Source: Patescibacteria group bacterium (lineage in GTDB: Bacteria; Patescibacteriota; Patescibacteriia; Patescibacteriales; JBAZCA01). Taken from it: 64,000 nucleotides of DNA. A program made the translations under genes and the position numbers. The stretch spans positions 8,120-72,119 of the forward strand of contig JBAZCA010000001.1 of assembly GCA_041671125.1 (NCBI GenBank). The letters run 5' to 3'. Under the pieces are notes generated by a model. The model did no database searches. It was not told the origin of the DNA and was given only the letters and a program-made list of their open reading frames with translations. Below, in pieces: positions 3,001-61,203 of this stretch (positions are counted from its first letter, which is position 1; each line of letters opens with the position of its first letter).

Positions 3001-6000
3001 GACCGCGAGCGTTACCGGGATCCTAGGTTATGATCCGATGTCTAACAGCGCTAAATTCTCTCCGACTAACGCCTTAACGCCAAACACTGCTTACACTTTA
3101 ACCGTCCTTGGCAGTACCGGAGGCGTTGCTGATTTATCAGGCAATACCCTTTTAGCTGACCACATTATTACCTTTAAAACCGGATCAGCCGATACTGCCG
3201 CGCCAAAAGTCATGTTCGCGAACGGCGATGATTACCAGATCGCCCTGACTTTTTCCGAACCCATGAACGCCTCCTTGAAAACCGACACTGACAACTGGGC
3301 TTATTCGGTTTTAAATCCGGCTAATTTCTACGTTAACGCTTTAACTTCGGCTGACAATCCGGCTACCTGGGCCTCCACTCCGACCCTCACCGCCCCTTAT
3401 AATACCGGCACGGGAAATCAGGTCTCAGGACTATCAGGAGTTACGATTACTTATGATCAGACAACCCAGACCGCGATATTAAAAGGTTTTACTTTCCCGG
3501 CTTCAGGAGTTACCCATTTTCAGGTTTTCGCCGACAATGTTAAAGACAAATCCGGCAACGCGATCGGCGATTCCGGCGTCCGCGCTAAGCACTCGGGCGA
3601 TCCGACCTATGATGACGCGGTCGGCCATGACAACGGAGCCCGGGCGCCGATTCAATCCAGCTCCGGCACTTATGGCATGCTCGGACCGGGCGGCGGAGGC
3701 GGAATGATGATGTCCGGCGGCGGAGCTGGCGGAGCGGGAACAACATCAGGCGGCCCGAGCGGTATGGATATGGGAAAAATGGGTATGTTCAGCGCCGGAG
3801 CTTTTCCCATGAACGCCATGACCGGCCAGACTTCCAATTACTTTATTGATCTTCCGGTAACTAAGCCGCTCTCCGACGGCATGCTCATAACTATCACCTT
3901 CCCGACCGGATTTAATGTTTCGGCCGTTGCCAAAGATCCTTACTCGCCCGCCAATAATGACATGAATGATCGGGGCGCCGGAACAATCGGTTTTGACGCG
4001 GCATACGGGGTGGGCGGAGTCGCTTCCACCACACTGAATGTTGTCACCATGAAGCTTGATGTATCCGGAACCCCGAACGCGGCCGCCGGCCCGGATGGTT
4101 TTTATGATTTTCTTCATATTGATCTTAAAGGAGTAAAAAATTCCAATATTGCCAAAGATTTCGGCACTTCCGGCTATACGGCTGATATTAAAACCATGTC
4201 CGCCGACGGCTCGCTTTTGGAAAGTGTTACCACTATGCCCTTCTTTATCACCCAGGGCGGCTCTAATACGCTTACAGTCGTAGTAAACTGCGGCGACACT
4301 GATCAAGATACTGGAACAATGGCAACTTATCTTGGCTCGCCCATGACCGGACCGATGGAAGCGATTTCTTCCACTTTCACTAATGGTATTGCCACCTCCA
4401 CCTTTACCAATCTTTCGGCCGGCCAGTACATGCTCTTTACCGACCCGTTCCTTACTATCGGCGGCGCGAACTATTTAGGCAAACCCATGCCCGAAACCAT
4501 CCAAATTTCCGCGGCGACAGAGAAAAATATTACCATAGAAAAAGAAGGAGCCGGAGCCGGAAAAGCCGCGGTTACGGTTTATCTCTTCGGCGATTTTTCT
4601 ACTGATAGCGCGGCTGATGATGTAGATATATTTGCTAACTCGCCTTCAGGTTTCCGGGTAAAAACCCTTACTGATGTCGGCAGTACCAACCCGAATACCA
4701 CGCTTTACTTAACTGAAGGCGAATGGATGATGGGCGCCGGAATCGCCATGCCTAAAGGTCCGATGTCCGGGTCGCCTGCCAGCCCCGACTGGATGGAACC
4801 ACAAAAAGTCGGTGTTATAGTCGGGATTGAAACCGCGACCGGAAGAAATCTTGATCCTGACGGGGCGACTGACGCGGCCATTGGTAACACCCAGCCGGTG
4901 CTATTAACCGTCGCCAGCACCAATAACTTCAAAGTTGGGGATGTAATAACCTTCGCGACCGGAGCGGCCGCGGCCACCACTACGATTACATCTTTTGTCG
5001 CCAACACTTCCCTAACTTTTACTCCGCAAGGCAACTGGACGACCCTGCCGGCCGCTAACGACGTAATCACCTCAGTTCGCGAGCCTTCTAATGGCCCGAA
5101 TGACAAAAAAGTAAACTTTAATATTTCTACGCAGGCTACCAAGGAAATTAAAGGTTTTGTTTTAGATTCCGATGGCAGTGGAATCGGCAATGCCGAAATA
5201 TACGCTTATCAACCGCAAGGCTTTGGCGGCGGCAATACCACGGCTGATACTTCCGGTAAATTCACCTTAAAAATCGGGACTACCGGAGTCTGGACTATTG
5301 GCGCGTTTAAGCCGGGCATGCCGAGTTCCAAAGAAAAATCCGTTGAAGTAAAAGATAATACTATTGGAGGCGACGGCAATACCACGGCTGATATTTATCT
5401 TGATGGAACAATTATCCATGATGCTACAAATAATAATGCCGGAACAAATCCCTTAAGGCTTAAATTAAAACGGCCCGAATATACCATTTCCGGTAAAGTC
5501 CTTAATACCGGCGGCCAGTCAGTCCCCTACGCTCCGGTTTGGGCGTATCAGCCGACCGGGGGAGGACATTCCGATACTATGACTGACTCTTCCGGAAATT
5601 ACATATTGTACGTTGATGCCGGAACCTGGCGGATTGAAGCTGACGCGCCGAACGTCGGCTGGATGCAGTATTCGCCGGATGTTACTGTAAGCGCCGCTTC
5701 CCAATCCAATATTAATTTAAGGCCATCCGGTTCAGCCACTTATTACAGCGTATCCGGAACAATCACCATTGACGGCTCGGCTCAAAGTTATATTCCTCTT
5801 CGGGCCGCGCTCTACGACGCGAACGGCAATTACCAGGGCCGCGATTACGGCGCTTCAACCGATTCAAACGGCGGCTATACTCTGAGCCTGCCGGCGGGCT
5901 ATTACCGGATTGATACCTGGACCCAGAATTACGGCGAGGTGGAACTGGTTTATGATCAGGTGGCGAGTTCCCAGGCTAATATTAACGTCAACGCCGCGAC

Positions 6001-8767
6001 AACCACCGCCGACATACTAGTAGCGGCGGCGGATCTGCAGACTATTTCCCTCCAGTTTAATAATGGCGCGGCCGCCCAAACCGGATTCCTTAACGTGGAT
6101 GAAGTAACTTTCAACGGCGCTAACCCAATACCGACCGGTTACCATTTCTCAACCAAGATTGACGGTTTGAACGCCACTTCCACCATTAAAATTAAAGGCG
6201 CTTCGGCGGGAAAATATTATTTCTTTGGCCTGGATGTTCCGGGTTATGGCTTTTTCTCTCCGGATACTGCCAGCCGCCAGGCTCTCTCTAACGACAAAGA
6301 TTGCATTAAAGTAACTGACGCGGCCCGGGCGGTTTACTTTACTCTGCCGAACGCTTCTACGGAAATGATAACGGTTAGCGGCACGGTTACCGACGGCTCT
6401 GTCGGCCTCGCGAATGCCTGGGTTTGGATTGGCAGCCCGAATACCGGCTACCATACCGGCGCCGAAACCGGTTCAGCCGGAACTTTCTCTATAACCGTGC
6501 CCAAGCTCGAAAGCGGCACATATAATTTAGGCGCGGATAAGTCCGGCTATATGTCTTCGGCTCCGGCTTCGGTTTCCGCGACTACGGCCAGCGCGGATAA
6601 TACGGTCGCCCTGGGCGCAGCCGCCCGGACGATTGTCGGTTACGTGAAAAACGACTCAGGAACCAACATCCCGAACGCTTATGTCTGGGCTAAAGAAACA
6701 ACCACCGGCAATATGGCTCATACTCCGGCTGACGCCTCAGGCTACTATTCCCTGCCGGTTACTAACGGAACCTGGTCAATTATGGCCGGAGCCGACGGTT
6801 ACAAGGACGGCAATTATAAGGTCAACAACACTAAAACCAACGTTACGGTGGCGGGCGCGATCCAGACTCCGGCCGGCAGTATTGATATTGTCCTGGAAAC
6901 CAACGCGGACTGGACAATGAAAACCAAATCAAAATCCATTACCCCGTCATCCGGCGGAACGGTTGATGATACTGCCGCTTCGGCTACGGGAGTAAAAATT
7001 ACGGCTCCGCCGAACGCTTTAGGTTCCAGCCAGTCTTCCGGCAATCTTGGCATCCAGGAAACCTCGGCCGTTACCGAGACTACCAGTTTTGAGCCTTTGG
7101 GAGGAATCGGAAAAGTAATAACCGCGACGGATAATTCCGGACAGGCCATAACCAACTTAAGCGATTACCTTGATATTGAAATCGTTTATTACAAAGCCAA
7201 TATTGAGGCCATGAATTTAGTGGATTATTCAAAATTAAAGACCCAGACTCTGGGGTACTGGGATAATACCGCCAATAACTGGGTCAACCTGAATACCACG
7301 AGAAAGGCTTATTATAAGCTAGCCGCGGACGCGACCGAATGGACCATGAAATCGGATAGCGCGACGCAAACCGGTTATGAAGAATTTATTGATACTTTAG
7401 CGGCCGGCAGCCCGAGCTACTACGATTATAAGCTGGTATTTATCGGAAAGACTAATCACTTAACCGTATTTTCGGCTATCAACCCGCCTGACGCCCTGGC
7501 CCCGGCCGCTCCGGCCAGCCTCGCGCAGACTTCCGGCGGAGGAACGTCGGTCGGATTATCCTGGGCTGCCGTTACGACCAACGCGGACGCCACCAGTATA
7601 ACGGATTTGCTTGGCTACGAGCTCTATCGCTCTACTGACGGAACAACCTATACTCAGGTTAACACTTCCGATATTTCAGGAACCACCTATACCGATACCG
7701 GCCGGACCGCTTTTACCAGTTACTATTATAAAATTACCGCGGCTGACGACGGCGGCAATGAGTCGGCTTATTCTTCGGCGCTTCAGGTTTGCTCCACCAA
7801 CACGGTTTCAAACGGCCTTGTTGCCGCTGACTGCTCCATTTCCTGCAATACCGGTTACACGCGAAATGGCAACACCTGCGCCGCGAATGCCGGATCAGCC
7901 GCTCCCTCCGGGAATACTACGCATTGCTCTTCGGTCGTTTATGACGAATGGCAGGCATCCTGCGCCGCTGACGGATTTCAGTATCGCAACATCAAATCTT
8001 TTTCGCCTTCCGGCTGTTCCCTTTCTGCGAGCCAGGAGACGGAAAGAAAACGCGCTTGCCCATCATTAGCCGAAGAAGCCCCGGTAACCGAAAAAGCTAA
8101 GGAAATTATTAAAAACACCAAAGAGACAGTAGCTGAAGTCAAAGCTAAAACCGAGGAAACAGCCAAAGCTTTTACGGAAAAACTTACAGCCATAGCGTAT
8201 GACGCCGCGGAAATAATTAAAGCCTCGGTTTCAACGCTTCTGGAAAAACTCGGACTGAAGCGTAATATTACCGATGAGCAAAAGACTGCCGATAAGTTTA
8301 CTAAGATGCTCATTAAGAATCTTAAAGTTGCCGTGAAAGATCAGTCCGCCATTACCAACTTTATTTCTTACGGAACCGAAACAACGTTAAAGCTCGGCGC
8401 CGGAGAACGGGCCGGAGTGCTGAATTCCTATAAATCGGCTTTTGGCAGACTTCCGGCAAAGGAGACCGAATGGAGCGACGCGATAAAAATCGCCAATGGC
8501 CGGTGGCCTTCGGAGCTTAATAAAACCTCGGAAGCCAACGCCACTCTGGCTTTCAGAAAAATCTATAAACGCGCGCCGGACCGGAAAAATTCGAACGACG
8601 ACGCGGCCGTGACGGTTATCGCTTACGGACTCCGGCCAGCCCAAAGGAATGTAAATAGCGAAGCCGCGGCTATTAAATCCTTTAAGGCCATCTACGGTTA
8701 CCCGCCAGTTTCAGCTACTGCTTGGGATATTGTCAGAGCCATTGCCTATTCCGGGGCGAAACGGTAA
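2..8767 (+). CDS. Giant secreted/S-layer-like surface protein, 5'-partial (ORF open to window edge; >2,920 aa)
   Basis: The frame of ORF 74..8767 has no stop back to nt 2. The residues TYTEFSLDNSAGFVGLLFSDETNT precede the listed Met and read like the C-terminal half of a lamin-tail domain (LTD) (..GGSLERK..NNNSADF..PGPQNS). A complete LTD lies at ~355-870 (VVINEVLYN..GGWIELFN..ISLQNW..GGDITLKD..IQYG..ESIARR..NNSGDW). SbsA-type Ig-like modules lie at ~1980-3200 (LTVEFSEAMDATSV, IEIGFSEGMNPSTI, IALTFSEPMNASL). Carboxypeptidase-regulatory-like beta-sandwich repeats lie at ~1690-1870 and 5150-6830 (IKGFVLDSDGSGIGNAEIYAY..TSGKFTL and others). An FN3 domain lies at ~7490-7790 (LSWAAV..GYELYRS..YYYKITAADDGGNES). 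A Cys-rich block at 7790-8060 is followed by a duplicated C-terminal module. Confidence 0.85.
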   Translation, partial: TYTEFSLDNSAGFVGLLFSDETNTMTADKVAYGAVTTASLAEGGSPAPAPPAGGSLERKAFPDSSPATMVGGIHATKGNAEDSNNNSADFIIRSATDLPGPQNSSASAETKEISSASRSVVINEVLYNTTATGGWIELFNASADPISLQNWKVEIATTTAAQVYTITDAVTLASQNFAVVYWNLAGTNDTDTSDGRAALYTGTKPAMSTLGGDITLKDNTNAIKDYIQYGGSGKTGQSAAATAGQWSTGDFIQVCNYNESIARRSTTGDDYNNSGDWMHMSAPSAGYPNTGGDTTSPSSITNVTFSDADTTNYGLDGNDVRVVFTPASSFDSSFDRYELFILPEGVALDQSLHKKFAAIYGQYQYVGSTVQANYTFTGYGDFNMKYDSANNPLANGSYRAYVVAVDFAGNRSSAVSSPAATITAEAGGDDTIPPMIDHMSVWQAKAEANLSFVVRAGDDRGIDTVELPYKINNGAWGTATSTCAAPVMSDNTGFYACSIAWDAGWDAATVLSYYIKAKDTAASPNYQYMGAYPTNSETTAKSNPINIDFVAAADWEDAGTEADLTGRVNDTSGAPIQDAFVFIEGTATGLATTTAAGAYTIADNIIPAGSQNVKALKSGYMDMMKLVNRGQTADFFLNTGFMNTSSGGSSGGNGVAWSAPMDGMMWAPTNISCSGDCMTDTIPMTEMPILITFFNNMNATTIDDSDASNSGSNIYVTADGLTKVPGKVKYNNAAKQARFYSSTALSANTFYTVVITPNAKDQDGNSVQSNRPSGNYEFSFTTMPDNTDMWGGGGTDFSSFGDGGKFMPPYVKGTNPSPGSFNIPLSAVLTVEFSEAMDATSVSTGIKLYKITSESSWTVTEVTDKSVSVSLDSATKKLATITHTALDTNAANNGWYELRVMGSVKSQLGVWMIDPVSVGCSDPNSCAAMSTAYVFNSSFQVGSSSDTTRPTVTGTFPNNNDGITAGTASADVAMSAIEIGFSEGMNPSTINAQTITLKNGTASVTGILGYDPMSNSAKFSPTNALTPNTAYTLTVLGSTGGVADLSGNTLLADHIITFKTGSADTAAPKVMFANGDDYQIALTFSEPMNASLKTDTDNWAYSVLNPANFYVNALTSADNPATWASTPTLTAPYNTGTGNQVSGLSGVTITYDQTTQTAILKGFTFPASGVTHFQVFADNVKDKSGNAIGDSGVRAKHSGDPTYDDAVGHDNGARAPIQSSSGTYGMLGPGGGGGMMMSGGGAGGAGTTSGGPSGMDMGKMGMFSAGAFPMNAMTGQTSNYFIDLPVTKPLSDGMLITITFPTGFNVSAVAKDPYSPANNDMNDRGAGTIGFDAAYGVGGVASTTLNVVTMKLDVSGTPNAAAGPDGFYDFLHIDLKGVKNSNIAKDFGTSGYTADIKTMSADGSLLESVTTMPFFITQGGSNTLTVVVNCGDTDQDTGTMATYLGSPMTGPMEAISSTFTNGIATSTFTNLSAGQYMLFTDPFLTIGGANYLGKPMPETIQISAATEKNITIEKEGAGAGKAAVTVYLFGDFSTDSAADDVDIFANSPSGFRVKTLTDVGSTNPNTTLYLTEGEWMMGAGIAMPKGPMSGSPASPDWMEPQKVGVIVGIETATGRNLDPDGATDAAIGNTQPVLLTVASTNNFKVGDVITFATGAAAATTTITSFVANTSLTFTPQGNWTTLPAANDVITSVREPSNGPNDKKVNFNISTQATKEIKGFVLDSDGSGIGNAEIYAYQPQGFGGGNTTADTSGKFTLKIGTTGVWTIGAFKPGMPSSKEKSVEVKDNTIGGDGNTTADIYLDGTIIHDATNNNAGTNPLRLKLKRPEYTISGKVLNTGGQSVPYAPVWAYQPTGGGHSDTMTDSSGNYILYVDAGTWRIEADAPNVGWMQYSPDVTVSAASQSNINLRPSGSATYYSVSGTITIDGSAQSYIPLRAALYDANGNYQGRDYGASTDSNGGYTLSLPAGYYRIDTWTQNYGEVELVYDQVASSQANINVNAATTTADILVAAADLQTISLQFNNGAAAQTGFLNVDEVTFNGANPIPTGYHFSTKIDGLNATSTIKIKGASAGKYYFFGLDVPGYGFFSPDTASRQALSNDKDCIKVTDAARAVYFTLPNASTEMITVSGTVTDGSVGLANAWVWIGSPNTGYHTGAETGSAGTFSITVPKLESGTYNLGADKSGYMSSAPASVSATTASADNTVALGAAARTIVGYVKNDSGTNIPNAYVWAKETTTGNMAHTPADASGYYSLPVTNGTWSIMAGADGYKDGNYKVNNTKTNVTVAGAIQTPAGSIDIVLETNADWTMKTKSKSITPSSGGTVDDTAASATGVKITAPPNALGSSQSSGNLGIQETSAVTETTSFEPLGGIGKVITATDNSGQAITNLSDYLDIEIVYYKANIEAMNLVDYSKLKTQTLGYWDNTANNWVNLNTTRKAYYKLAADATEWTMKSDSATQTGYEEFIDTLAAGSPSYYDYKLVFIGKTNHLTVFSAINPPDALAPAAPASLAQTSGGGTSVGLSWAAVTTNADATSITDLLGYELYRSTDGTTYTQVNTSDISGTTYTDTGRTAFTSYYYKITAADDGGNESAYSSALQVCSTNTVSNGLVAADCSISCNTGYTRNGNTCAANAGSAAPSGNTTHCSSVVYDEWQASCAADGFQYRNIKSFSPSGCSLSASQETERKRACPSLAEEAPVTEKAKEIIKNTKETVAEVKAKTEETAKAFTEKLTAIAYDAAEIIKASVSTLLEKLGLKRNITDEQKTADKFTKMLIKNLKVAVKDQSAITNFISYGTETTLKLGAGERAGVLNSYKSAFGRLPAKETEWSDAIKIANGRWPSELNKTSEANATLAFRKIYKRAPDRKNSNDDAAVTVIAYGLRPAQRNVNSEAAAIKSFKAIYGYPPVSATAWDIVRAIAYSGAKR

Positions 8768-14728: not shown

Positions 14729-14789
14729 AATTCATAATTCATAATTCATAATTCATAATTCATAATTCATAATTCATAATTCATAATTC
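14729..14789. repeat. (AATTCAT) x ~8.7 tandem array in the clpB 5' leader
   Basis: Eight perfect 7-nt units plus a partial unit lie between CIRCE and the clpB ATG (14812). Confidence 0.95.
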
Positions 14790-28847: not shown

Positions 28848-28903
28848 ATTGACTTTTTGGAAATCATTTTCGTTAGAACAATGCTAAAGCCCGAGACTTA
28901 AAT

Positions 28904-28952
28904 AATTCATAATTCATAATTCATAATTCATAATTCATAATTCATAATTCAT
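28904..28952. repeat. (AATTCAT) x7 tandem array, same unit and strand as the clpB-leader array
   Basis: Seven perfect units. The array overlaps the stop codon region of ORF 28935..30800, whose C-terminus ..LELMNYEL* is repeat-encoded. Confidence 0.95.
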
Positions 28953-30800
28953 CAATTCCAACTTATACAAAGTAAAATCATCGGTAATCATCTTTACTTT
29001 TTCCATCCTCAGATTTACTTTTCCCAAAGGGCCGCGATTAAGATGGTTGACCGTCGCTTCGGAATAGGTAAAATTATAATAATACATGGGCAAACGTTCG
29101 GCGACGCGGGCGTATGCGGCGATCATACGCGGATCATCAAACAACCCGACAATGACTTTTCGTTCGGGAAAAAATATCTTGTCATGATAGCGGGTCAATA
29201 TTACCGCGTTTTCTTCGGTAAGACTGAGAACTTTTTCATACTCCAGCCGGGCGGCGACACCTCTGTGATAAGAGATTACCAACCCCTCTTCCGAGCCGAA
29301 AAGCGTAAAATTAACACTCACGTAAAACAGCCCTAAAACCGCCAGCCCCAGGAGAAAACCTTGAAATGTTTTTACCAGAAACCGCGCGTCTTTTGAAAAA
29401 GATTTAAAAATGTTAATTCTTCCCAGACAATCCGTCAACAGTGTCGGCAGGCCAATGACTTTAAAAATAAGGTAGGAAACGAAAGGAATAGCGCCGAGGT
29501 AAACCGGCAGCCAGTAGCGGGTGTAGGAATTGCCAATGGTCGCGGCCGATTTATCCGGATTGTCATAAAACTCCCAACTGCCGTAATATAAAACCAATAT
29601 GGCCGAGAAAAAAAGCCAGGTAAGAATATAGACAAAATGCTTTTTCTTTAGTTTCTTAAAATGCAGGATAAAAAGCGCGAGGCCAAAAAATGCCGGCCAA
29701 AAAATCCAGTAAAACATTTTTATGAAATAAAGCTGGAAAATTTTTATGGACCTCGGAACGTTAATCCCAAAACTAAAAATTGCTTTTTCAATTCCTATTG
29801 CCAATTCCTTAATCCGGCCTATTCCCCCGCTCGCGAGGCCAGGAATGGATTTCATAAGATCCTTGCCGCCTCCGGCGACAGTAGCGATTGATTCGTTCAT
29901 GGCCGGATAGCCGCCGATCGTCGGCGAACCGTAAAGGATGCTGTTCCAATAAAATACCGGCAGTAAGGCCAAGGCGAAAAAAGATATAAAAATAACCAGC
30001 CGCGCCAGGCCGAAACGCCAAAAATTTAAAGCCCAGGCGATGAATAACGCCGGACCGAGCCATAAAAGCTCCGAAGACCGGACGGCTGAAGCGAGGCCGA
30101 TAAACAGCCCGCCCAAAGCGGCAAAAACCATTCCCCGCGCCTTTGGCCAAATCTTTTTCTTATTTTCCGGCTCTTTGCCATTCACCCTATCAGTAATTTC
30201 CGATCCAACATCTTCACTTCCTTCATGTTCTATTACGTCCTTCGTATTTTTTTCTTTAAGCAAAGAGGCTGAAATTAAAGTATAATATAATCCAACAATC
30301 AGAAACACTGTAAAAAGCACATTATGAAACATACTCCGGGCGCTGTAATAAAAATACACCGGAAAAACAGAAAGGATAAACGCCGAAAACAGGGCAACCC
30401 GCCGGGAAAAAAATATTCTCATTAACAGGTAGTAATAAACAATACCGACAGCCGCGAAAAACGGGGTAAGATAGCCGATAATTTTCCCGGTTGTAAAGGA
30501 GCCGATTATGCCGTAAACTAAAGGCAGACCGAGAAAACTAACCGGTTTCAGCTCGCCCGAGTCGCTTCGGAAGCTCCGCGGATGGATGATTTCTCCGGCT
30601 CCGGGGTTGTATTTTTCAAAAACCGACAACTCTCCTTCCCTGGCGTAAAGGCCGGAAAAAAAATAATTGGCGGTTTCATCCGGCGACCCCCATTTTAAAA
30701 ATCCCCCTTTCTGGGAGAGGTAAATATAAGCGCCGGCGGAAAGAAAAAAACCGACTGCCAAAGTAAAAAGTATTATTCCAATACCAATCTTATATTTCAT
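28935..30800 (-). CDS. Polytopic membrane protein, GT-C-fold (ArnT/PMT-like) glycosyltransferase candidate
   Basis: 621 aa with many hydrophobic helices. An acidic motif lies in the first loop (WGSPDETANYFF), and there is a C-terminal soluble domain. Confidence 0.5.
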   Translation of the reverse strand: MKYKIGIGIILFTLAVGFFLSAGAYIYLSQKGGFLKWGSPDETANYFFSGLYAREGELSVFEKYNPGAGEIIHPRSFRSDSGELKPVSFLGLPLVYGIIGSFTTGKIIGYLTPFFAAVGIVYYYLLMRIFFSRRVALFSAFILSVFPVYFYYSARSMFHNVLFTVFLIVGLYYTLISASLLKEKNTKDVIEHEGSEDVGSEITDRVNGKEPENKKKIWPKARGMVFAALGGLFIGLASAVRSSELLWLGPALFIAWALNFWRFGLARLVIFISFFALALLPVFYWNSILYGSPTIGGYPAMNESIATVAGGGKDLMKSIPGLASGGIGRIKELAIGIEKAIFSFGINVPRSIKIFQLYFIKMFYWIFWPAFFGLALFILHFKKLKKKHFVYILTWLFFSAILVLYYGSWEFYDNPDKSAATIGNSYTRYWLPVYLGAIPFVSYLIFKVIGLPTLLTDCLGRINIFKSFSKDARFLVKTFQGFLLGLAVLGLFYVSVNFTLFGSEEGLVISYHRGVAARLEYEKVLSLTEENAVILTRYHDKIFFPERKVIVGLFDDPRMIAAYARVAERLPMYYYNFTYSEATVNHLNRGPLGKVNLRMEKVKMITDDFTLYKLELMNYEL

Positions 30801-39054: not shown

Positions 39055-39510
39055 TTAACGTTTACTCCACTGCGGAGCCCGTCTGGCTTTTTTCAAGCCC
39101 GGTTTTTTCCGCTCCACTTCCCTCGCGTCGCGGGTTAAGTAGCCTTTGGCTTTTAACGCCGGCCGGAGCTCCGGGTCAAATTTAATCAAAGCCCGGGAAA
39201 TTCCGAGGCGAACCGCTTCGGACTGGCCGGATTTTCCTCCGCCAGACGTTAAAATTGAAAAGTCAAAATCTTTGTTTCTGCCAGTCAATTTTAAGGGCTG
39301 GTTAACGGTCATCATAAGTCCGGCCGGAAAATAATCGGTCGCTTTCATCCCGTTGACCATGATAATGCCTTTGCCTTTTTCATAAAGCCGGGTCTGGGCG
39401 ATGGCTCTTTTCCGTCTGCCGATCGCGGCGATATAACGACCCTTGAAAATGTCGTTTTTAACTTTTTCCTCGGCCGCGACGATTTTAGTTGTAGCTTTTG
39501 TTTCTGCCAT
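39055..39510 (-). CDS. rpsI: 30S ribosomal protein S9
   Basis: GRRKRAIAQTRL..GKGIIMVNG..GGGKSGQSEAVRLGISRAL..LTRDAREVERKKPGLKKARRAPQWSKR. The start is at ATG 39510; the TTG at 39528 lies in the repeat. Confidence 0.93.
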   Translation of the reverse strand: MAETKATTKIVAAEEKVKNDIFKGRYIAAIGRRKRAIAQTRLYEKGKGIIMVNGMKATDYFPAGLMMTVNQPLKLTGRNKDFDFSILTSGGGKSGQSEAVRLGISRALIKFDPELRPALKAKGYLTRDAREVERKKPGLKKARRAPQWSKR

Positions 39511-39528
39511 AATATATTTAATCTTCAA

Positions 39529-39988: not shown

Positions 39989-40339
39989 CTATACCAGCTC
40001 TATCCGCACAATTTCCGCCCCGTCGCCCTGGCGCTCCCCAAGCTTAACGATCCGGGAATAACCGCCTTTCAGGCCGGCGTAACGGCCACCAATAACTTCA
40101 ACCAGTTTTTTTGCCGCCATCTTCTGGGGCAAAATTGACATAATGCGTTTTTTTGAAGCCAGGTCGTTCTTCTTGGCGTAAGTAATCACCCTTTCTAAAA
40201 GCGACCGGACGGCTTTGGCTTTGGCTTTGGTGGTTTTTACTTTTTCATAAATCAAAATACTTGAAGCCAAATTCCGAAGCATGAGCTCTCTTGGTGCCTT
40301 TTTTCTGTCCAGTATTTTGTTTTTGTTCCTGTGTCTCAT
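39989..40339 (-). CDS. rplQ: 50S ribosomal protein L17
   Basis: MRHRNKNKILDRKKAPRELMLRNLASSILIYEKVKTTKAKAKAVRSLLERVIT..GGYSRIVKLGERQGDGAEIVRIELV. The start is at ATG 40339. Confidence 0.92.
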   Translation of the reverse strand: MRHRNKNKILDRKKAPRELMLRNLASSILIYEKVKTTKAKAKAVRSLLERVITYAKKNDLASKKRIMSILPQKMAAKKLVEVIGGRYAGLKGGYSRIVKLGERQGDGAEIVRIELV

Positions 40340-40393
40340 ATTTAACTCAATTTTCAATTATTCATTAATTGATCATTGAAGATTGATAATTGA

Positions 40394-41212
40394 TTAATTT
40401 TTCTTCGGCCTTCCCCTTTTCTTCGATGATTCCTTAGCTTCCATTTCAACCGGGGCTTCTGATTCTTCTCCGCCGACTTCTTTTTCTGAAACGCCTTCAG
40501 TTTCCCCGATTTCGGCTATCACCGCTTCTTTGCCGATTAAAGCGTTAAATTGTTCGATTAATATTTTGGCTGATTGGGAAAAAGCTTCTTCCGGCTCTAT
40601 CGTTCCGTCGGTTTTTATGTCCAGTTTTAATTTTTCCCAGTTAGTCATCTTTCCGACGCGGATACTTTCAATGTCAATTCCGACCTTAACCACCGGAGTG
40701 AAAATTGAATCAATTTCAATGTAGCCAATTTCGGAATTTTTATTTTCTCTCACTTCAACCGGTTCATAGCCTTTGCCCTGGGCGACGTGGATTTCCATTT
40801 CCAGATTGCCGGCCATATCGGTAATATTGGCGATAACCATTTCCGGATTCATTATTTCAACCTGGCTGGATTTCGTTATGTCGCCGGCTTTGACTTTTTT
40901 CTCCCCGTGGACAGCGAGCTCAAGCTTAACCGGTTCTTCGGAAAATACCTTTAACCTTAATTTTTTTAAATTCAGGATGATTTCCAAGACATCCTCTTTA
41001 ACGTGCGGAAGCGGCATGAATTCGTGATCCGCCCCTTTTATTTTTACCCCGACAACAGCCGCGCCCGGCAAGCTGGAAAGAAGCACCCGGCGAAGCGAAT
41101 TGCCGATAGTAATTCCGAATCCCGGATAGCAAGGATAAATTGACGCCAATGATTCATGGGCTTCGGCGCCTTTGATAAATTTCACATTCTGGGGTAAAGC
41201 AATGGTTTCCAT
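40394..41212 (-). CDS. rpoA: DNA-directed RNA polymerase alpha subunit: NTD only, with a C-terminal acidic linker plus AT-hook instead of the alpha-CTD
   Basis: The NTD is present (GFGITIGNSLRRVLLSSLPGAAVVGVKI..VEH EF pattern, here GADHEF). The protein is only 272 aa and ends ..EAVIAEIGETEGVSEKEVGGEESEAPVEMEAKESSKKRGRPKKN*. No LELSVRS/helix-hairpin-helix CTD sequence is present, and rplQ follows after 54 nt. Confidence 0.9.
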   Translation of the reverse strand: METIALPQNVKFIKGAEAHESLASIYPCYPGFGITIGNSLRRVLLSSLPGAAVVGVKIKGADHEFMPLPHVKEDVLEIILNLKKLRLKVFSEEPVKLELAVHGEKKVKAGDITKSSQVEIMNPEMVIANITDMAGNLEMEIHVAQGKGYEPVEVRENKNSEIGYIEIDSIFTPVVKVGIDIESIRVGKMTNWEKLKLDIKTDGTIEPEEAFSQSAKILIEQFNALIGKEAVIAEIGETEGVSEKEVGGEESEAPVEMEAKESSKKRGRPKKN

Positions 41213-42016: not shown

Positions 42017-42610
42017 TTATACTCTTCTCGGTTTTTTCGGACGACAACCGTTGTGCGGTATCGGGGTAATATCTTTTATTGAAGTTATTAATAACCCGTT
42101 GGCGTTCAAAGCGCGAACTGCGGCGTCGCGACCGATTCCCACTCCCCGGACAAACACGCTCACTTCTTTCAAGCCACAATCCTCTTTCGCTTTTGTGCAG
42201 GCGATGCGGGTGATGATCTGCGCCGCGTAAGGAGTAGCCTTTTTCGGCCCCTTAAACCCGGCTATTCCGGCTGAAGCCCAGGAAATTACGTTACCCCCCA
42301 AATCAGTCAAAGTTACAATCGTGTTATTGTAGGTGGATTTTATAAATACTTTGCCCGTCGGCACTCTCCGGTCTTTTTTCTTGCCTTTCTTTTTCTTTGA
42401 ACGGCTAGGACCTTTTTCTTTCCTTTTTTCCAATTTTTCTTTCACGCTGTCGGGCAGTTCAACAAGACCGCTTACGGGGCGGCGGCTCTCTTTTTCTTCT
42501 TCCGGATCAGACAAAAAAGACGCGGCACCGTTTGCCGTCGCGGCAACCGCATCGGCAGATGTTTCTTCGGTCTTTTTATTGTCAGTTTTTATGTTTTTTT
42601 CTTCAGTCAT
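42017..42610 (-). CDS. rpsK: 30S ribosomal protein S11 with a ~70-aa N-terminal extension
   Basis: The core is [80 protein letters not shown]. It is preceded by an acidic then poly-Lys extension (..[14 protein letters not shown]). Confidence 0.9.
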
Positions 42611-42703
42611 ATTTCATTCTCATAACCCGTAACTCATAACCCATAACTCGTTAGCATTTTACAAAAATTTGCGTTACGGGTTATGTATTGCGGGTTTTGG
42701 GTC
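42611..42703. repeat. CATAACC/CGTAACT-unit inverted repeat in the rpsM-rpsK gap
   Basis: cataacccgtaac (left) pairs with gttacgggttatg (right) in a perfect 13-bp match. The left arm continues as tandem cataacc cgtaact cataacc cataact. Confidence 0.85.
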
Positions 42704-43743: not shown

Positions 43744-43772
43744 ATTATATAGAAAAACTTAAAACCTGTCAA
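43744..43772 (-). promoter_or_regulatory. Perfect consensus sigma70 promoter for the infA-rpmJ-rpsM... operon
   Basis: The minus strand reads TTGACA (43772-43767), a 17-nt spacer (ggttttaagtttttcta), then TATAAT (43749-43744). Confidence 0.7.
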
Positions 43773-43786
43773 CACCTTTACTCTGG

Positions 43787-45709
43787 TTAGTCCAAAATCG
43801 CCTTAATCCTCCGCACTCCGGCCGAGGAGCTTTCTTCTTTTTGGATTTTAAAATGGCCTAATTCGCCGGTATTTTCGGCGTGCGGGCCACCGCAGATTTC
43901 GTAAGAAAAAACGTCAGCTCCTTCGCCAACCTTGTAGACTTTTACCTTTTCCCCGTATTTTGACTCAAAAACCCCCATGGCGCCTTTCTGCTTTGCTTCT
44001 TCCAGTAGTATCTCTTCAAAAGTAACCGGGAGCTTTTTTAAAATGGCGCTGTTCACTAATTTTTCCACTTCCTGCTTCTGCTCATCGGTCATCTTTTCCG
44101 GATGGGAAAAATCAAATCGCATCCTTTCGCCGGTAATATTACTTCCCTTCTGAGTTACATGATCGCCCAAAACTTTCCGCAAGGCGGCGAGAAGAAGATG
44201 GGCGGCCGTATGGAGCTTTTTTGTTTCTTCGCTCACGTCAGCCAAACCGCCTTTAAACATCCCGGCTGAAGCGGTCCGGGAAAGCGCCTGGTGTTTTTCC
44301 AGCTCTTTATTAAATTCTGCTATTAAATTTTTTGAAGTTTTTATTCCTCTTTCCTCGGTTAACTCAATGGTCATTTCAACAGGAAAACCGTAAGTCTGAA
44401 ACAAATTAAAAGCAAATTTTCCGTTTATCTCTGTAATTTTTAACATTTCATTTGAAATACTCTCATCCTCTGACATTGACGGAGATACTGATGCGCTTAT
44501 AATTTTTTCGCCCTTCTCTAATGTCTTGGCAAATTTCTCTTCTTCTTCCTTTAACTGACTTACCACAAAATCAATATTCCGCCGGAGTTCCGGATAGGCT
44601 TCGCCATAATCATGGGCGACAATCTTGGCGATTTCTTTGGTCCATAATTCTTCGCCGATGCCTAAGAGGCGGCCGTAGCGGATAGCCCTTCTTATAAGCC
44701 GGCGGACAATGTAGCCTTGACCAGTATTAGACGGCCCGACGCCTTTGTCGTCGCCAATAATAAAAGTAGCGGCCCGAAGGTGCTCGGCAATCACTTCAAA
44801 TTCTTTCATATTCTCCCGATATTTTTTTCCGCCCGAGAGCTCGCTGATTTTATTCAAAATATTGCTAAAGAGGTCTGTTTCAAAAATATTGTCCAGGCCC
44901 TGGACGACCATGGTCGTCCGTTCCAGTCCGCCGCCGAAGTCAACATTCTGCTGGGCGAGTTTTTCAAAACCGTTTTCCGTCCTTTTAAATTCCATGAAAA
45001 CGCTGTTGCCGATTTCAATAAACCGGCCGCAGTCGCAGTTTACGTGGCAGGGCTTTTCCGCCCAGGGGGAATTTTCGTGATGCCTTAGGTCAGCGCCCAG
45101 GTCGTAAAAAAGTTCCGAATCCGGCCCGCCCGGCTCGCCGACCGGCATGTTGGCCGGGATTCCCGATCTTGACCACCAATTCTTCCGCTCGTCGTAATAA
45201 AAAATCCGGCCGCCCCGCATTCCGTCCCTTTCGGCAAAATCAACGTCTTCAGCCTCAATGCCTTTTTCCTTAAAAAGCTCTTTCCAGATCGCGACCGCCT
45301 CGCTGTCCTTATTAATGCCGATTTCTTTATTGCCGCGGAACACGGTTGAGTAAAGCCGGCCGGGGTCAATCCCCAGTTCTTCGGTAATAAAAGTAAAGTA
45401 CCAGCGCAACTGTTCTTTTTTAAAATAATCGCCCAAAGACCAGTTGCCAAGCATCTCAAAAAAAGTCGTATGCCGGTTGTCGCCGACTTCCTCAATATCT
45501 TCGGCCCGGAATGACTTTTGCGAATTGGTGAGCCTTTTTCCTTCCGGATGTTTTTCGCCGAGGAGATACGGGACGAGCGGCTGCATACCTGAGCTGGTAA
45601 AAAGAGTGGTCGGGTCGTTGTCCGGCATAATAGAAGCCGAAGGTATTACCGCGTGGTCGTTAGCTTTAAAAAAATCCAGATATTTCTGGCGTATTTCTTT
45701 AGAAGTCAT
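43787..45709 (-). CDS. alaS: Alanine--tRNA ligase, short form (640 aa, ends after the editing domain; no C-Ala domain)
   Basis: The N-terminus is MTSKEIRQKYLDFFKANDHAVIPSASIMPDNDPTTLFTSSGMQPLVPYL, followed by FEMLGNWSLGDYFK. The editing-domain motifs HTAAHLL and CGGPH are present. The protein stops about 25 aa after CGGPH. Confidence 0.9.
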   Translation of the reverse strand: MTSKEIRQKYLDFFKANDHAVIPSASIMPDNDPTTLFTSSGMQPLVPYLLGEKHPEGKRLTNSQKSFRAEDIEEVGDNRHTTFFEMLGNWSLGDYFKKEQLRWYFTFITEELGIDPGRLYSTVFRGNKEIGINKDSEAVAIWKELFKEKGIEAEDVDFAERDGMRGGRIFYYDERKNWWSRSGIPANMPVGEPGGPDSELFYDLGADLRHHENSPWAEKPCHVNCDCGRFIEIGNSVFMEFKRTENGFEKLAQQNVDFGGGLERTTMVVQGLDNIFETDLFSNILNKISELSGGKKYRENMKEFEVIAEHLRAATFIIGDDKGVGPSNTGQGYIVRRLIRRAIRYGRLLGIGEELWTKEIAKIVAHDYGEAYPELRRNIDFVVSQLKEEEEKFAKTLEKGEKIISASVSPSMSEDESISNEMLKITEINGKFAFNLFQTYGFPVEMTIELTEERGIKTSKNLIAEFNKELEKHQALSRTASAGMFKGGLADVSEETKKLHTAAHLLLAALRKVLGDHVTQKGSNITGERMRFDFSHPEKMTDEQKQEVEKLVNSAILKKLPVTFEEILLEEAKQKGAMGVFESKYGEKVKVYKVGEGADVFSYEICGGPHAENTGELGHFKIQKEESSSAGVRRIKAILD

Positions 45710-48726: not shown

Positions 48727-48754
48727 AATAAATAAAAGTTAAGTTGTGAATTAC

Positions 48755-48859
48755 CAATGATCAATGATCAATTTTCAATGAATTTTCAATGATTCAATGA
48801 TAAAATTTTCAAACGTTTGGAAATTGAAAATTGATTAATTGAAAATTCATTGATCATTG
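48755..48859. repeat. About 105-nt imperfect palindrome of CAATGAT/AATTTTC units in the ftsI-murF gap
   Basis: caatgatcaatga (48755-48767) pairs perfectly with tcattgatcattg (48847-48859). Internally, aattttcaat pairs with attgaaaatt. The centre is aaacgttt. Confidence 0.85.
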
Positions 48860-48879
48860 TAAATTGATAATTGATAATT

Positions 48880-50904: not shown

Positions 50905-51008
50905 GTTTTCATTTTGTTTTATTTTTTTATGTTAGCACGACAAGCGCAATATAAGTCAAAAGTTAAAAGTGCAAAGTTTAAAATTATTTTTGATACTTCA
51001 ACTTTTAA

Positions 51009-51358: not shown

Positions 51359-52318
51359 TTAATTTTTAATTTTTAATTTTTCCGCCGCTCTTAGCTTAGC
51401 GCTTCGGGCGCGCGGATTATTTTTAATCTCTTCGTTCGACGGGACAATGACTTTTTTAGTAAGTATTTTTAAATCGGCTTTTTCGTTATCCTCTTTTTCG
51501 CCGTATTTTGACCGTTTTGAAACCTTTCCCGCGTTTTCCTTAAAAAACCTTTTTACTATCCGGTCTTCAAGGCTATGGTAGGAAATAACCACCAGCCTGC
51601 CGCCTTCCTTTAAAAGCGAAATTGCCTCGGGCAGGGCTTCGCTTAAAGCCCCCAGTTCATCATTTGTCGCGATGCGCAAAGCCTGAAAAGTTTTTGTCGC
51701 CGGATGAATTTTTCCTCTCCGGTAAAAGGCCGGCACTGCCGCGTTTATTATCTCAACCAATGCGCCGACGGTTTTTATTTTTTCTTTTTTTCTTTTCTCA
51801 GTAATCTTTTCGACAATCCGCCAGGCAAACCTTTCTTCGCCATATTCTTTAAATATCCGCGCCAGCTCATCCTTTGGCCGACTGTTGACTATGTTCTCCG
51901 CTGTCTCAAGCGTTTTGCCAAAAGCCATGTCTAGTCCAGCTTCAGCCATTTTAAAAGAAAAACCTCCGGTTTCACGCGCGAGCTGAGCGCTTGATAGACC
52001 AAGATCAAATACAATGCCGTCAAACTTAACGCCTGGCTCAGGGAAATTCTTTTTAATAATAATCGGTAAATTCCTGAAATTCGCATGAGATAAGAATGAA
52101 TTTTTAATTTTTAATTTTTCAATTTTTAATTTGGCGTTCTCTATGGCCAGCTCATCAGCGTCAATGGCCAGAACTTTTCCTTTTTCGCCAACCTTATCCG
52201 CGATAGCCCCCGTATATCCTCCTCCCCCCAAAGTGCAATCAATATAGTAACCGCCTTTTTTTATATTCAGGTATTCCAGCGCTTCGCTTAACATTACCGG
52301 CGTGTGATGATATTCCAT
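51359..52318 (-). CDS. rsmH: 16S rRNA (cytosine1402-N4)-methyltransferase RsmH/MraW
   Basis: HTPVMLSEALEYL..YIDCTLGGGGY..DLGLSSAQL..GFSF..LDMA..SYHSLEDRIVKRFF. It contains an in-frame AATTTTT array (52099-52134, LKIEKLKIKN) and a repeat-encoded C-terminus (KLKIKN*). Confidence 0.92.
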   Translation of the reverse strand: MEYHHTPVMLSEALEYLNIKKGGYYIDCTLGGGGYTGAIADKVGEKGKVLAIDADELAIENAKLKIEKLKIKNSFLSHANFRNLPIIIKKNFPEPGVKFDGIVFDLGLSSAQLARETGGFSFKMAEAGLDMAFGKTLETAENIVNSRPKDELARIFKEYGEERFAWRIVEKITEKRKKEKIKTVGALVEIINAAVPAFYRRGKIHPATKTFQALRIATNDELGALSEALPEAISLLKEGGRLVVISYHSLEDRIVKRFFKENAGKVSKRSKYGEKEDNEKADLKILTKKVIVPSNEEIKNNPRARSAKLRAAEKLKIKN

Positions 52319-52382
52319 TTAATTTTTAATTTTTAATTTTGTAATTTTTAAAAATTCAAAAATTATAAAATTAAAAATTCTC
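52319..52382. repeat. AATTTTT/AAAAATT-unit inverted repeat in the mraZ-rsmH gap
   Basis: aatttttaatttttaattttgtaattttt faces aaaaattcaaaaattataaaattaaaaatt. Confidence 0.85.
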
Positions 52383-60164: not shown

Positions 60165-60196
60165 TTCTTACCAGATATGGTTATTAACCAGACCCT

Positions 60197-60224
60197 GTTA
60201 TGTGTTATGTATTATGTGTTATGT
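60197..60224. repeat. (GTTATGT) x4 array overlapping the 3' end of radical SAM gene 2
   Basis: gttatgt gttatgt attatgt gttatgt encodes the C-terminal ..HITHNT* on the minus strand. Confidence 0.85.
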
Positions 60225-61203
60225 GTTTTATTTTTTCTTTCGCAATCCACATCCCCGCCCGGAACCAATGTTTCTTAATCGCCGGTTTGGCAGTACAGAC
60301 CATCCAGCAGGGCGTCGGGCATTTTTTAACTTTCATCCGAATTTTCTTTGCTTTTTCTCCTTCCCATATTTCCTGAAAACTTTGTCCGCTTAAATTGCCG
60401 GCCTTATCGCTTAAAATATTGCAGGGATAAATATTTCCTTCCGGATCCATGAAAAACGAGCCGCAAAGCGCGTCGCAAGGGAGAAGCGCCCGGCCGATAT
60501 TGACATAATAGACCATGCCGCGCATGTAATAGCATTTTCCCAATTCGGCCGGTTTGAATGATTTTATTTTCCGGCTTATTTCTCCTTTGAGCTGCTTCTC
60601 GATTTCGGCTTTTTCCGTTCCCTGATTGCTGTCGGTGGAAAAATAATTATCGCTGTTATGAGCGACGGTAATGCCTAGGTTCACGCCTTCCGCGCGACAG
60701 AATTCCGCTACTTTCTCGTATTGGCTTTCATTACCGGCCATGAATGTGAACCCGGCGCCGATATTTTTAAAACCGATCTTTTTTAAGCGCGACACGGTGT
60801 CTTTAACCATGCCGAAAGCGCCAGGTATTCCTCTTATTTCATCATGAATTTTCCCGATCCCGTCAATGGATACGGCAATGGTTACACGATCAGAATAATT
60901 TTTCTTCAAAATCTCTTTGGTGATTCTTTCAATCAAATCCGAAAGATAACCGTTAGTGGAAATAACCACGCGGCTCGGTTTTACTTCCCTAAAAATCACG
61001 TCTAAAATTTTCAGGATATCATTCCTTAAAAATGGCTCACCGCCGGTAATATTAATATCATCAAGGCTTTTTGGCAGTCGTCCGTAAACTTCCGGACTAA
61101 GCTCTTTACCGGGCGTCATCTTCCAGATATTACACATCCTGCAGCGGGAATTGCATTTATAGGTTATGGCAATTACCGCTGATTTAGGATCATTTAAAAA
61201 CAT
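60205..61203 (-). CDS. Radical SAM / SPASM-domain protein (2 of 3)
   Basis: ITYKCNSRCRMCNIW, ITGGEPFL, and the C-terminal CDALCGSFFMDPEGNIYPC..KKCPTPCWMVC. Confidence 0.85.
   Translation of the reverse strand: MFLNDPKSAVIAITYKCNSRCRMCNIWKMTPGKELSPEVYGRLPKSLDDINITGGEPFLRNDILKILDVIFREVKPSRVVISTNGYLSDLIERITKEILKKNYSDRVTIAVSIDGIGKIHDEIRGIPGAFGMVKDTVSRLKKIGFKNIGAGFTFMAGNESQYEKVAEFCRAEGVNLGITVAHNSDNYFSTDSNQGTEKAEIEKQLKGEISRKIKSFKPAELGKCYYMRGMVYYVNIGRALLPCDALCGSFFMDPEGNIYPCNILSDKAGNLSGQSFQEIWEGEKAKKIRMKVKKCPTPCWMVCTAKPAIKKHWFRAGMWIAKEKIKHITHNT

Follow-up and report, generated by a model that had tools for sequence, protein, structure and literature searches.

The alpha subunit's C-terminal domain (alpha-CTD) in bacterial RNA polymerase (RNAP) is a textbook component of transcription initiation, which reads UP elements and is contacted by CRP-type and many other activators. 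A/T tracts are read through their minor groove by the alpha-CTD and by AT-hooks alike. The subject of this study is RpoA, the alpha subunit encoded in a 64-kb window of a patescibacterial genome (assembly GCA_041671125.1, contig JBAZCA010000001.1; the window is the whole stretch of 64,000 nt that was analysed), in which the CTD is missing and the chain ends in KKRGRPKKN, which reads as an AT-hook.

Loss of the alpha-CTD was reported for the extreme endosymbionts Hodgkinia and Tremblaya, and a single passing sentence in the same paper adds the Parcubacteria (PMC8321222); the main text of the work cited there for the Parcubacteria contains no discussion of RpoA (PMC4508563). AT-hooks on RNAP have been described in accessory factors. 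CarD of Myxococcus xanthus binds the beta subunit of RNAP and carries an acidic region and four AT-hooks; a Lys-rich domain of the histone-H1 type can take the place of its HMGA-like domain, and in a relative such a Lys-rich, H1-like domain replaces the HMGA-like one without loss of function (PMC2919716). The WhiB-like (Wbl) proteins of Actinobacteria, such as WhiB7 and WhiB1, are held on RNAP through region 4 of sigma-A and have a C-terminal motif of the AT-hook type (PMC6954389). Full-text literature searches found no description of an AT-hook on RpoA.

Results

The C-terminal tail of RpoA

The C-terminal end of window RpoA reads ...AKILIEQFNALIGK-EAVIAEIGETEGVSEKEVGGEESEAPVEMEAKESS-KKRGRPKKN and is followed by a TAA stop codon; it divides as ...ILIEQFNALIGK / EAVIAEIGETEGVSEKEVGGEESEAPVEMEAKESS / KKRGRPKKN. 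The open reading frame and its translation agree with a first-pass annotation of this stretch, which had described an alpha subunit of 272 amino acids (aa) with this ending. Because the stop codon is TAA, recoding of UGA is not an issue.

The segment KKRGRPKK consists of a G-R-P core with a preceding Arg and with Lys on both flanks, and its RGRPKK is identical to that of the third hook of human HMGA1. The Pfam AT_hook model (PF02178) scored 10.5 bits on the whole protein and 14.3 bits on the tail alone, against a gathering threshold of 17.4, and it scored 8.5-14.3 bits in eight homologues and found no match in two more. As a control, single human HMGA1 hooks scored 12.7 and 12.9 bits or were unreported, and whole HMGA1a scored 16.2. 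Since genuine single HMGA1 hooks also fall below 17.4 bits, the threshold cannot decide the membership of one hook, and it was dropped as an uninformative test. The R-G-R-P with its Lys flanks, the predicted disorder of the segment and the HMGA1-like score uphold the earlier identification of the tail as a core AT-hook motif. By direct reading the tail of window RpoA is an AT-hook, and it is predicted to bind the minor groove. Each chain has a single GRP, at residue 267, and the multiple hooks per polypeptide that characterize HMGA and CarD are thus absent.

The hook was conserved well beyond the window. The best 120 database matches listed were 241-304 aa long and lacked a CTD; 103 of them ended in a hook and 17 in a Lys-rich tail. 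Comparison of 126 distinct hook-bearing homologues, whose identity to the query in the N-terminal domain (NTD) ranged down to 49%, gave the consensus K-K-R-G-R-P-K-K, with G, R, and P invariant in 126/126. The Arg before G-R-P was present in 125/126, the two Lys before that Arg in 117/126 and 112/126, and the first and second Lys after Pro in 116/126 and 126/126, respectively. The distance from the hook to the C-terminus was 3-5 residues in 129 of 132 hook-class sequences; the remaining three had it at 7 or 9.

Among 26 species-level genomes (25 related loci and the window), KKRGRPKK was constant except for two conservative Lys-to-Arg changes. The codons at the invariant positions were not constant across the same 26 species: five to six different codons were used for Arg, four for Gly and four for Pro. 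Synonymous codon turnover under a constant peptide means that selection acts on the peptide, and the eight-residue hook is under strong purifying selection. The pattern [KR]GRP[KR][KR] occurred 27 times in 328,033 residues of six-frame open reading frames from the window and 66 loci, in every case at the C-terminus of RpoA. Whether the RGRP tail is conserved had been named as a check on the first-pass annotation, and the 103 of 120 closest homologues and the 26 species-level genomes, with their synonymous codon turnover, answer it in favor of conservation. Judged from these comparisons, the tail is neither a product of chance nor of truncation.

The N-terminal domain and the acidic linker

TIGR02027 (rpoA) scored 251.3 bits on window RpoA, against a cut-off of 227.8, and the NCBIfam rpoA models, which are 300-340 positions long, aligned over profile positions of about 5-240 only. 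The Pfam matches were to the two alpha-NTD families PF01000 (E = 1.2e-29) and PF01193 (E = 5.4e-20). RpoA chains in the PDB matched at E = 3.6e-54 over query residues of about 19-230 only, with residues 19-228 aligning with residues 23-234 of the Escherichia coli protein. An AlphaFold2 model built on 78 homologues had a predicted local distance difference test score (pLDDT) above 90 up to about residue 228. Protein P0001, annotated as RpoA in a Patescibacteria metagenome-assembled genome (MAG), is identical to window RpoA. We read window RpoA as the genuine, functional alpha subunit of a patescibacterial lineage (Parcubacteria group, near Falkowbacteria).

Residues 233-272 had pLDDT values of 42-58 and no secondary structure in the AlphaFold2 model, so that both linker and hook are predicted to be disordered. 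The linker comprises 35 residues (229-263) and has a net charge of -10, with 12 Glu and 2 Lys; the first-pass description of about 40 acidic residues was therefore overstated. In homologues the segment between NTD and hook was 21-61 residues long (median 34 aa), and its sequence could not be aligned while its acidity was retained, with medians of 38% Asp/Glu and a net charge of about -8. When the sequences were grouped by tail class, the median net charge after the NTD was -8.5 in the hook class, -6 in the Lys-rich class and -2.5 in the class with a purely acidic ending. Taken together, the sequence comparisons and the structure prediction indicate that the folded CTD is replaced by an HMGA-like disordered module, composed of an acidic linker of about 35 residues and one AT-hook.

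Absence of the alpha-CTD

The Pfam alpha-CTD family (PF03118), which has a helix-hairpin-helix fold, had no match on window RpoA, even at E <= 10, and only 44 residues follow the NTD, all of them predicted to be disordered. To look further, 16 full-length alpha subunits from the same homologue search were used for a CTD profile hidden Markov model (HMM), and the window and all 66 loci that had been fetched were scanned with it in six frames, each translated from stop to stop. The positive control succeeded in 23 of 23 non-Patescibacteria loci at E < 1e-27, while the six frames of the 64-kb window and of 41 Patescibacteria loci gave nothing better than E = 1.5. The alpha-CTD search that the first-pass annotation had proposed thus returned no match in the open reading frame, the frames of the window or the 41 related loci.

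Between rpoA and rplQ lie 36 nt if rplQ is counted from its first TTG (40357), or 54 nt if it is counted from its first ATG (40339). The earlier statement that 54 nt leave no room for a split CTD gene holds for the first ATG, and the conclusion is the same for the first TTG, because a split CTD gene cannot fit into a spacer of 36-54 nt. The rpoA-rplQ spacers of relatives ranged from 4 to about 130 nt and likewise contained no open reading frame. A sequencing frameshift, which the annotation had raised as a danger to its reading, is excluded because more than 100 independent assemblies share the architecture. The TAA stop, the short spacer, the null result of the six-frame CTD search and the same architecture in relatives led us to reject both a frameshift and a split CTD gene.

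Tail types across relatives

The named relatives were Patescibacteria, Parcubacteria-group and Falkowbacteria MAGs. CTD-less alpha subunits of 233-300 aa were found throughout the related Patescibacteria loci, and they ended in a hook, in a Lys-rich tail or in a short acidic stub, the last exemplified by L041 (Magasanikbacteria), L030, L038, and L040. About half of the nearest 150 cluster representatives (50% identity) keep the CTD, including two annotated as Patescibacteria (P0134 and P0136). Because the CTD is kept in some Patescibacteria, its loss is lineage-specific within the radiation.

A neighbor-joining tree of the NTD, which is rough and whose sampling is skewed toward the query, placed the hook sequences in one coherent block with Lys-rich subclades nested inside it. 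Other Lys-rich forms and acidic forms adjoined the hook block, and the CTD-bearing forms lay outside. Hook loci had 29-52% GC and did not differ in this respect from Lys-rich or acidic loci; base composition was accordingly ruled out as the cause of tail type.

Eleven loci (L005, L010, L014, L018, L024, L028, L029, L031, L037, L038, and L040) are titled "uncultured Gammaproteobacteria bacterium" or "Planctomycetota bacterium" and look mislabelled. They carry CTD-less rpoA of the Patescibacteria type, 52-72% identical to the query, and on this basis the Gammaproteobacteria and Planctomycetota labels on these MAGs are probably wrong. Three CTD-bearing alpha subunits of other bacteria (P0174, P0183, and P0237) have an Arg-rich extension beyond the CTD (...RRGRRKDD, ...HARGRRRR, and ...RSRGRARRGG), so that CTD-less forms may not be alone in having a basic tail on alpha.

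The operon promoter and upstream AT phasing

A perfect sigma-70 consensus promoter, TTGACA-17-TATAAT, is predicted upstream of infA-rpmJ-rpsM-rpsK-rpsD-rpoA-rplQ. Of the 33 related Patescibacteria loci examined (L001-L037), 26 have the same 12/12 promoter upstream of infA, as does the window; in the related loci it usually lies 80-180 nt before the infA start. This conserved promoter would be a handy anchor for comparative promoter work in an uncultured group.

The 60 nt upstream of the -35 hexamer were aligned without gaps across the orthologous infA promoters. AT content peaked near -41, -50, -58, -68, -78, and -89, with G/C-richer troughs between the peaks. A period of 9.5 nt dominated, with a power not attained in any of 2000 shuffles made within sequences. 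The phasing held in a non-redundant set (n = 21) and also when loci whose upstream region overlaps the end of alaS were left out (n = 14; mean pairwise identity 32%). In the window itself this region overlaps the 3' end of alaS and is only moderately AT-rich. Phased A/T tracts are the usual appearance of UP elements in most bacteria (PMC12641261), and their retention in a lineage without an alpha-CTD fits a predicted minor-groove reader tethered to RNAP.

Promoter prediction over the window returned 31 sites that matched at 10 or more of the 12 positions, compared with about 20 expected from shuffles. A genome-wide test for UP elements by way of promoters predicted in the window was set aside as too weak (r = 0.18, p = 0.09).

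Other features of the window

The features discussed here are collected in Table 1. The genes infA, rpmJ, rpsM, rpsK, and rpsD lie upstream of rpoA, and rplQ, rplM, and rpsI lie downstream. Pfam assigned these neighbors as S13, S11, S4, L17, L13, S9, L36, and IF-1, and the rpsM-rpsK-rpsD-rpoA-rplQ neighborhood is kept. Intergenic DNA of the window has 33.7% GC, coding DNA 45.7% and the whole window 44.9%, so that the very AT-rich intergenic DNA of the first-pass annotation was an overstatement.

Table 1. Positions of the features of the rpoA region and of period-7-type arrays in the window.
Feature	Position	Strand	Basis or remark
rpoA coding sequence, 272 aa	40394..41212	-	TAA stop at 40394..40396; TIGR02027 match
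Alpha NTD (dimerisation and insert domains), residues 1-228	40529..41212	-	PF01193, PF01000, AlphaFold2, PDB match
Acidic linker, predicted disordered, residues 229-263	40424..40528	-	12 Glu, 2 Lys; AlphaFold2, homologue comparison
C-terminal AT-hook KKRGRPKKN, residues 264-272	40397..40423	-	Pfam AT_hook, the sole other Pfam feature, on the tail
C-terminal tail peptide of window RpoA			EAKESSKKRGRPKKN
rpoA-rplQ spacer, AT-rich, with period-7 repeat	40358..40393	-	36 nt; Tandem Repeats Finder (TRF) array 40366-40399
rplQ (ribosomal protein L17), next gene downstream of rpoA	39989..40357	-	PF01196, E = 2e-29
Operon promoter, predicted perfect sigma-70 consensus	43744..43772	-	TTGACA 43772..43767, 17-nt spacer, TATAAT 43749..43744
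60 nt upstream of the -35 hexamer, possible UP-like element	43773..43832	-	AT peaks in orthologous promoters
Period-7-type arrays	14729-14789, 28902-28958, 40366-40399, 42619-42649, 48747-48879, 50953-50986, 52318-52351, 60196-60227		about 20 more in the window

Short tandem arrays with a period of 7 (also 14 and 21), each of 3-9 copies, recur in the window, and their unit sequence varies by site. After overlaps were merged, there were 21 period-7 arrays and 8 of period 14 or 21; shuffles gave 0-4 period-7 arrays. Many units have an AATT core (AATTCAT, ATAATTC, TAATTGA, TTGAAAA, and others). About half of the arrays are intergenic, typically 0-55 nt before a start codon, including those in the rpoA-rplQ and rpsM-rpsK spacers. 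Array density per 10 kb was 3.9 in hook relatives, 2.2 in Lys-rich relatives, 1.95 in acidic-tail relatives and 0.5 in non-Patescibacteria loci. The idea that the arrays serve as hook-specific landing pads was dropped, as they also occur in Lys-rich and acidic relatives and lie mostly just before start codons. Intergenic heptamer repeats of TAACTGA are known from Beggiatoaceae and Cyanobacteria (PMC4679880); the arrays of the window resemble them, but the unit sequence is not fixed.

Two ribosomal proteins of the operon are extended. In S11 (42017-42610, minus strand) the Pfam domain is preceded by an N-terminal addition of about 85 residues, acidic at first and then strongly basic, and S9 (39055-39528, minus strand) has an extension of about 36 residues; both are charged and probably disordered. 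The last 10 nt before the rplQ start lacked a GGAG/GAGG Shine-Dalgarno core in 40 of 41 spacers (L001-L041), the exception being L007. The sequence upstream of rplQ was usually ...TTATATG or ...AATATG, and L001 and L008 carry GGAG/GAGG farther upstream. The rpoA stop codons in L001-L041 were all TAA or TAG. A single open reading frame of 2897 aa occupies positions 74-8767 of the plus strand.

Discussion

Proposed role of the hook

The best-supported reading of the tail, to which we give about an even chance, is that the hook acts as a minimal stand-in for the contacts of the alpha-CTD with UP elements. Given the alpha2 stoichiometry of RNAP, each enzyme would carry two flexibly tethered hooks. 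Upstream of -35 these could enter A/T tracts by the minor groove, on the DNA face where the alpha-CTD normally sits. Such contacts would raise promoter affinity much in the manner of the alpha-CTD at UP elements, and they would do so without the protein surface used by classical activators. The acidic linker probably curbs non-specific DNA binding, as is thought for the acidic regions of HMGA and CarD. The first-pass annotation had proposed the same replacement. It is favored by the disordered tether and by the UP-like phasing of A/T upstream of the operon promoter, and it has precedents in CarD and the Wbl proteins; the presence of phasing in relatives without a hook and the existence of sister lineages without a basic tail count the other way, and the proposal stands in part.

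Several points weigh against a role of the hook as a stand-in for the alpha-CTD. A lone AT-hook binds DNA weakly, as HMGA peptides do. In the sister lineages L030, L038, L040, and L041 the CTD-less alpha subunits are 233-237 aa long and lack a basic tail, so that a polymerase without the CTD can do without the tail as well. AT phasing was equally clear in eight non-hook relatives with Lys-rich or acidic tails; it is thus not tied to the hook, and curvature of the DNA alone could account for it. The AT profile of the infA promoter was not significantly shared by ten other predicted intergenic promoters of the window (r = 0.18, p = 0.09). The nesting of Lys-rich tails within the hook clade suggests that electrostatics may suffice. 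Finally, a stand-alone CTD may be encoded elsewhere, the search having covered 41 loci and a 64-kb part of a contig that is at least 275 kb long.

The main rival, a possibility that we regard as unlikely though the least so among the alternatives, is that the tail is a generic polycationic DNA tether, which would provide non-specific affinity for the nucleoid (facilitated search or retention) with no specificity for A/T or for the UP position, RGRP being one of several interchangeable basic endings. This would account for the Lys-rich tails of the KPKKGKTKKS and KKKIKSKKKS types, which replace the hook in nested subclades and in deeper CTD-less lineages, and for AT phasing that is independent of tail type. 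However, the invariance of G, R, and P in 126/126 homologues, together with synonymous codon turnover, is stricter than a role based on charge alone needs, and the Lys-rich tails, unlike the hook, vary freely in sequence.

A further possibility, and a distinctly less probable one, is that the acidic tract is the main element and acts as a nucleic-acid mimic in promoter selectivity or recycling, with the basic tip folding back on it or balancing its charge. The acidic C-terminal tail of Firmicute delta and region 1.1 of sigma-70 would be models for such mimicry. An acidic stretch follows the NTD in both the hook and the Lys-rich classes, less markedly in the class with a purely acidic ending, and some lineages have an acidic tail only (e.g., P0124, P0130, and P0149). 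An acidic mimic nevertheless leaves unexplained why the tip matches the exact AT-hook consensus and, in 129 of 132 hook-class sequences, is only 3-5 residues away from the C-terminus.

It is very unlikely that the hook binds RNA (nascent or ribosomal, in the manner of "extended AT-hooks") or a protein partner such as an elongation or termination factor, thereby assuming non-DNA roles of the alpha-CTD, and not promoter DNA. The predicted disorder of the tail is typical of linear interaction motifs, NusA is among the factors that the alpha-CTD contacts, and RNA binding is known for some eukaryotic AT-hooks. Nonetheless, no partner or RNA element was identified, and the motif has the short canonical core of the DNA-binding type, as in RGRPKK of the third HMGA1 hook. 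An artefactual short alpha (through a frameshift in the assembly, a gene call cut short or the decay of a functionless remnant) has negligible probability, given the identical architecture in more than 100 independent assemblies (NCBI, JGI, ENA, and Logan) and in 41 GTDB species loci with downstream rplQ intact in each, the TAA stop, the lack of a CTD in any frame of the window or of 41 related loci and the purifying selection on the tail.

The wider interpretation goes a step beyond the role of the hook itself, and we advance it tentatively, as somewhat less probable than not. A large clade of Patescibacteria may have rebuilt upstream promoter recognition inside the core enzyme, with a eukaryote-style HMGA module (acidic tract and AT-hook) in place of the folded alpha-CTD, the hub for UP elements and most classical activators. 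RNAP would then read phased A/T minor grooves through two disordered hooks and would be closed to regulation by alpha-CTD-dependent activators. The hook, Lys-rich, and acidic-only tails of sister lineages would be alternative solutions to one problem.

Significance

Lineages of a major uncultured radiation did away with the alpha-CTD, and one large clade put a strictly conserved AT-hook in its place, which amounts to a natural experiment on how little upstream promoter contact transcription requires. Gene regulation in these organisms may be unable to use class I activation. If the hook does contact promoter DNA, the principle of an AT-hook on RNAP, as in CarD and WhiB7, would reach beyond accessory factors into the core enzyme. 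As a matter of structure the finding is firm and holds across a large clade, and it should be of interest to specialists in transcription.

Comparison with known systems

Window RpoA shares with the canonical alpha subunit of RNAP an orthologous NTD, the position of the gene between rpsD and rplQ and a flexible tether that departs from the NTD at the same place. The two also have in common the DNA proposed as target, A/T tracts upstream of -35 contacted in the minor groove. In contrast, the canonical alpha has a folded CTD of about 70-85 aa (PF03118) where window RpoA has a nine-residue AT-hook. Window RpoA lacks the surface for activator contact, and its strongly acidic linker has about double the length.

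The CTD-less alpha subunits of Hodgkinia and Tremblaya likewise belong to bacteria with small genomes, in which the CTD was lost and the NTD kept. The loss in these endosymbionts is described as erosion, whereas a strictly conserved new motif stands in place of the lost domain here.

HMGA proteins have the same RGRPKK core in the third HMGA1 hook, intrinsic disorder, an adjoining acidic region and similar PF02178 scores, but they carry three hooks per chain and are free architectural factors. We found no evidence of common descent between HMGA and the RpoA hook, and the motif is short enough to have arisen independently.

Wbl proteins resemble window RpoA in that a C-terminal motif of the AT-hook type is held on RNAP near the DNA upstream of -35. 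They differ as separate, regulated Fe-S factors, which are not core subunits and lack an acidic linker. Functionally, CarD comes closest, also an RNAP-bound protein with an acidic region beside DNA-binding AT-hooks, and the exchange of HMGA-like and Lys-rich domains in CarD parallels the alternation of hooks and Lys-rich tails in the alpha tree. CarD is, however, an accessory regulator with four hooks and an unrelated N-terminal domain, whereas here a single hook is part of a core subunit.

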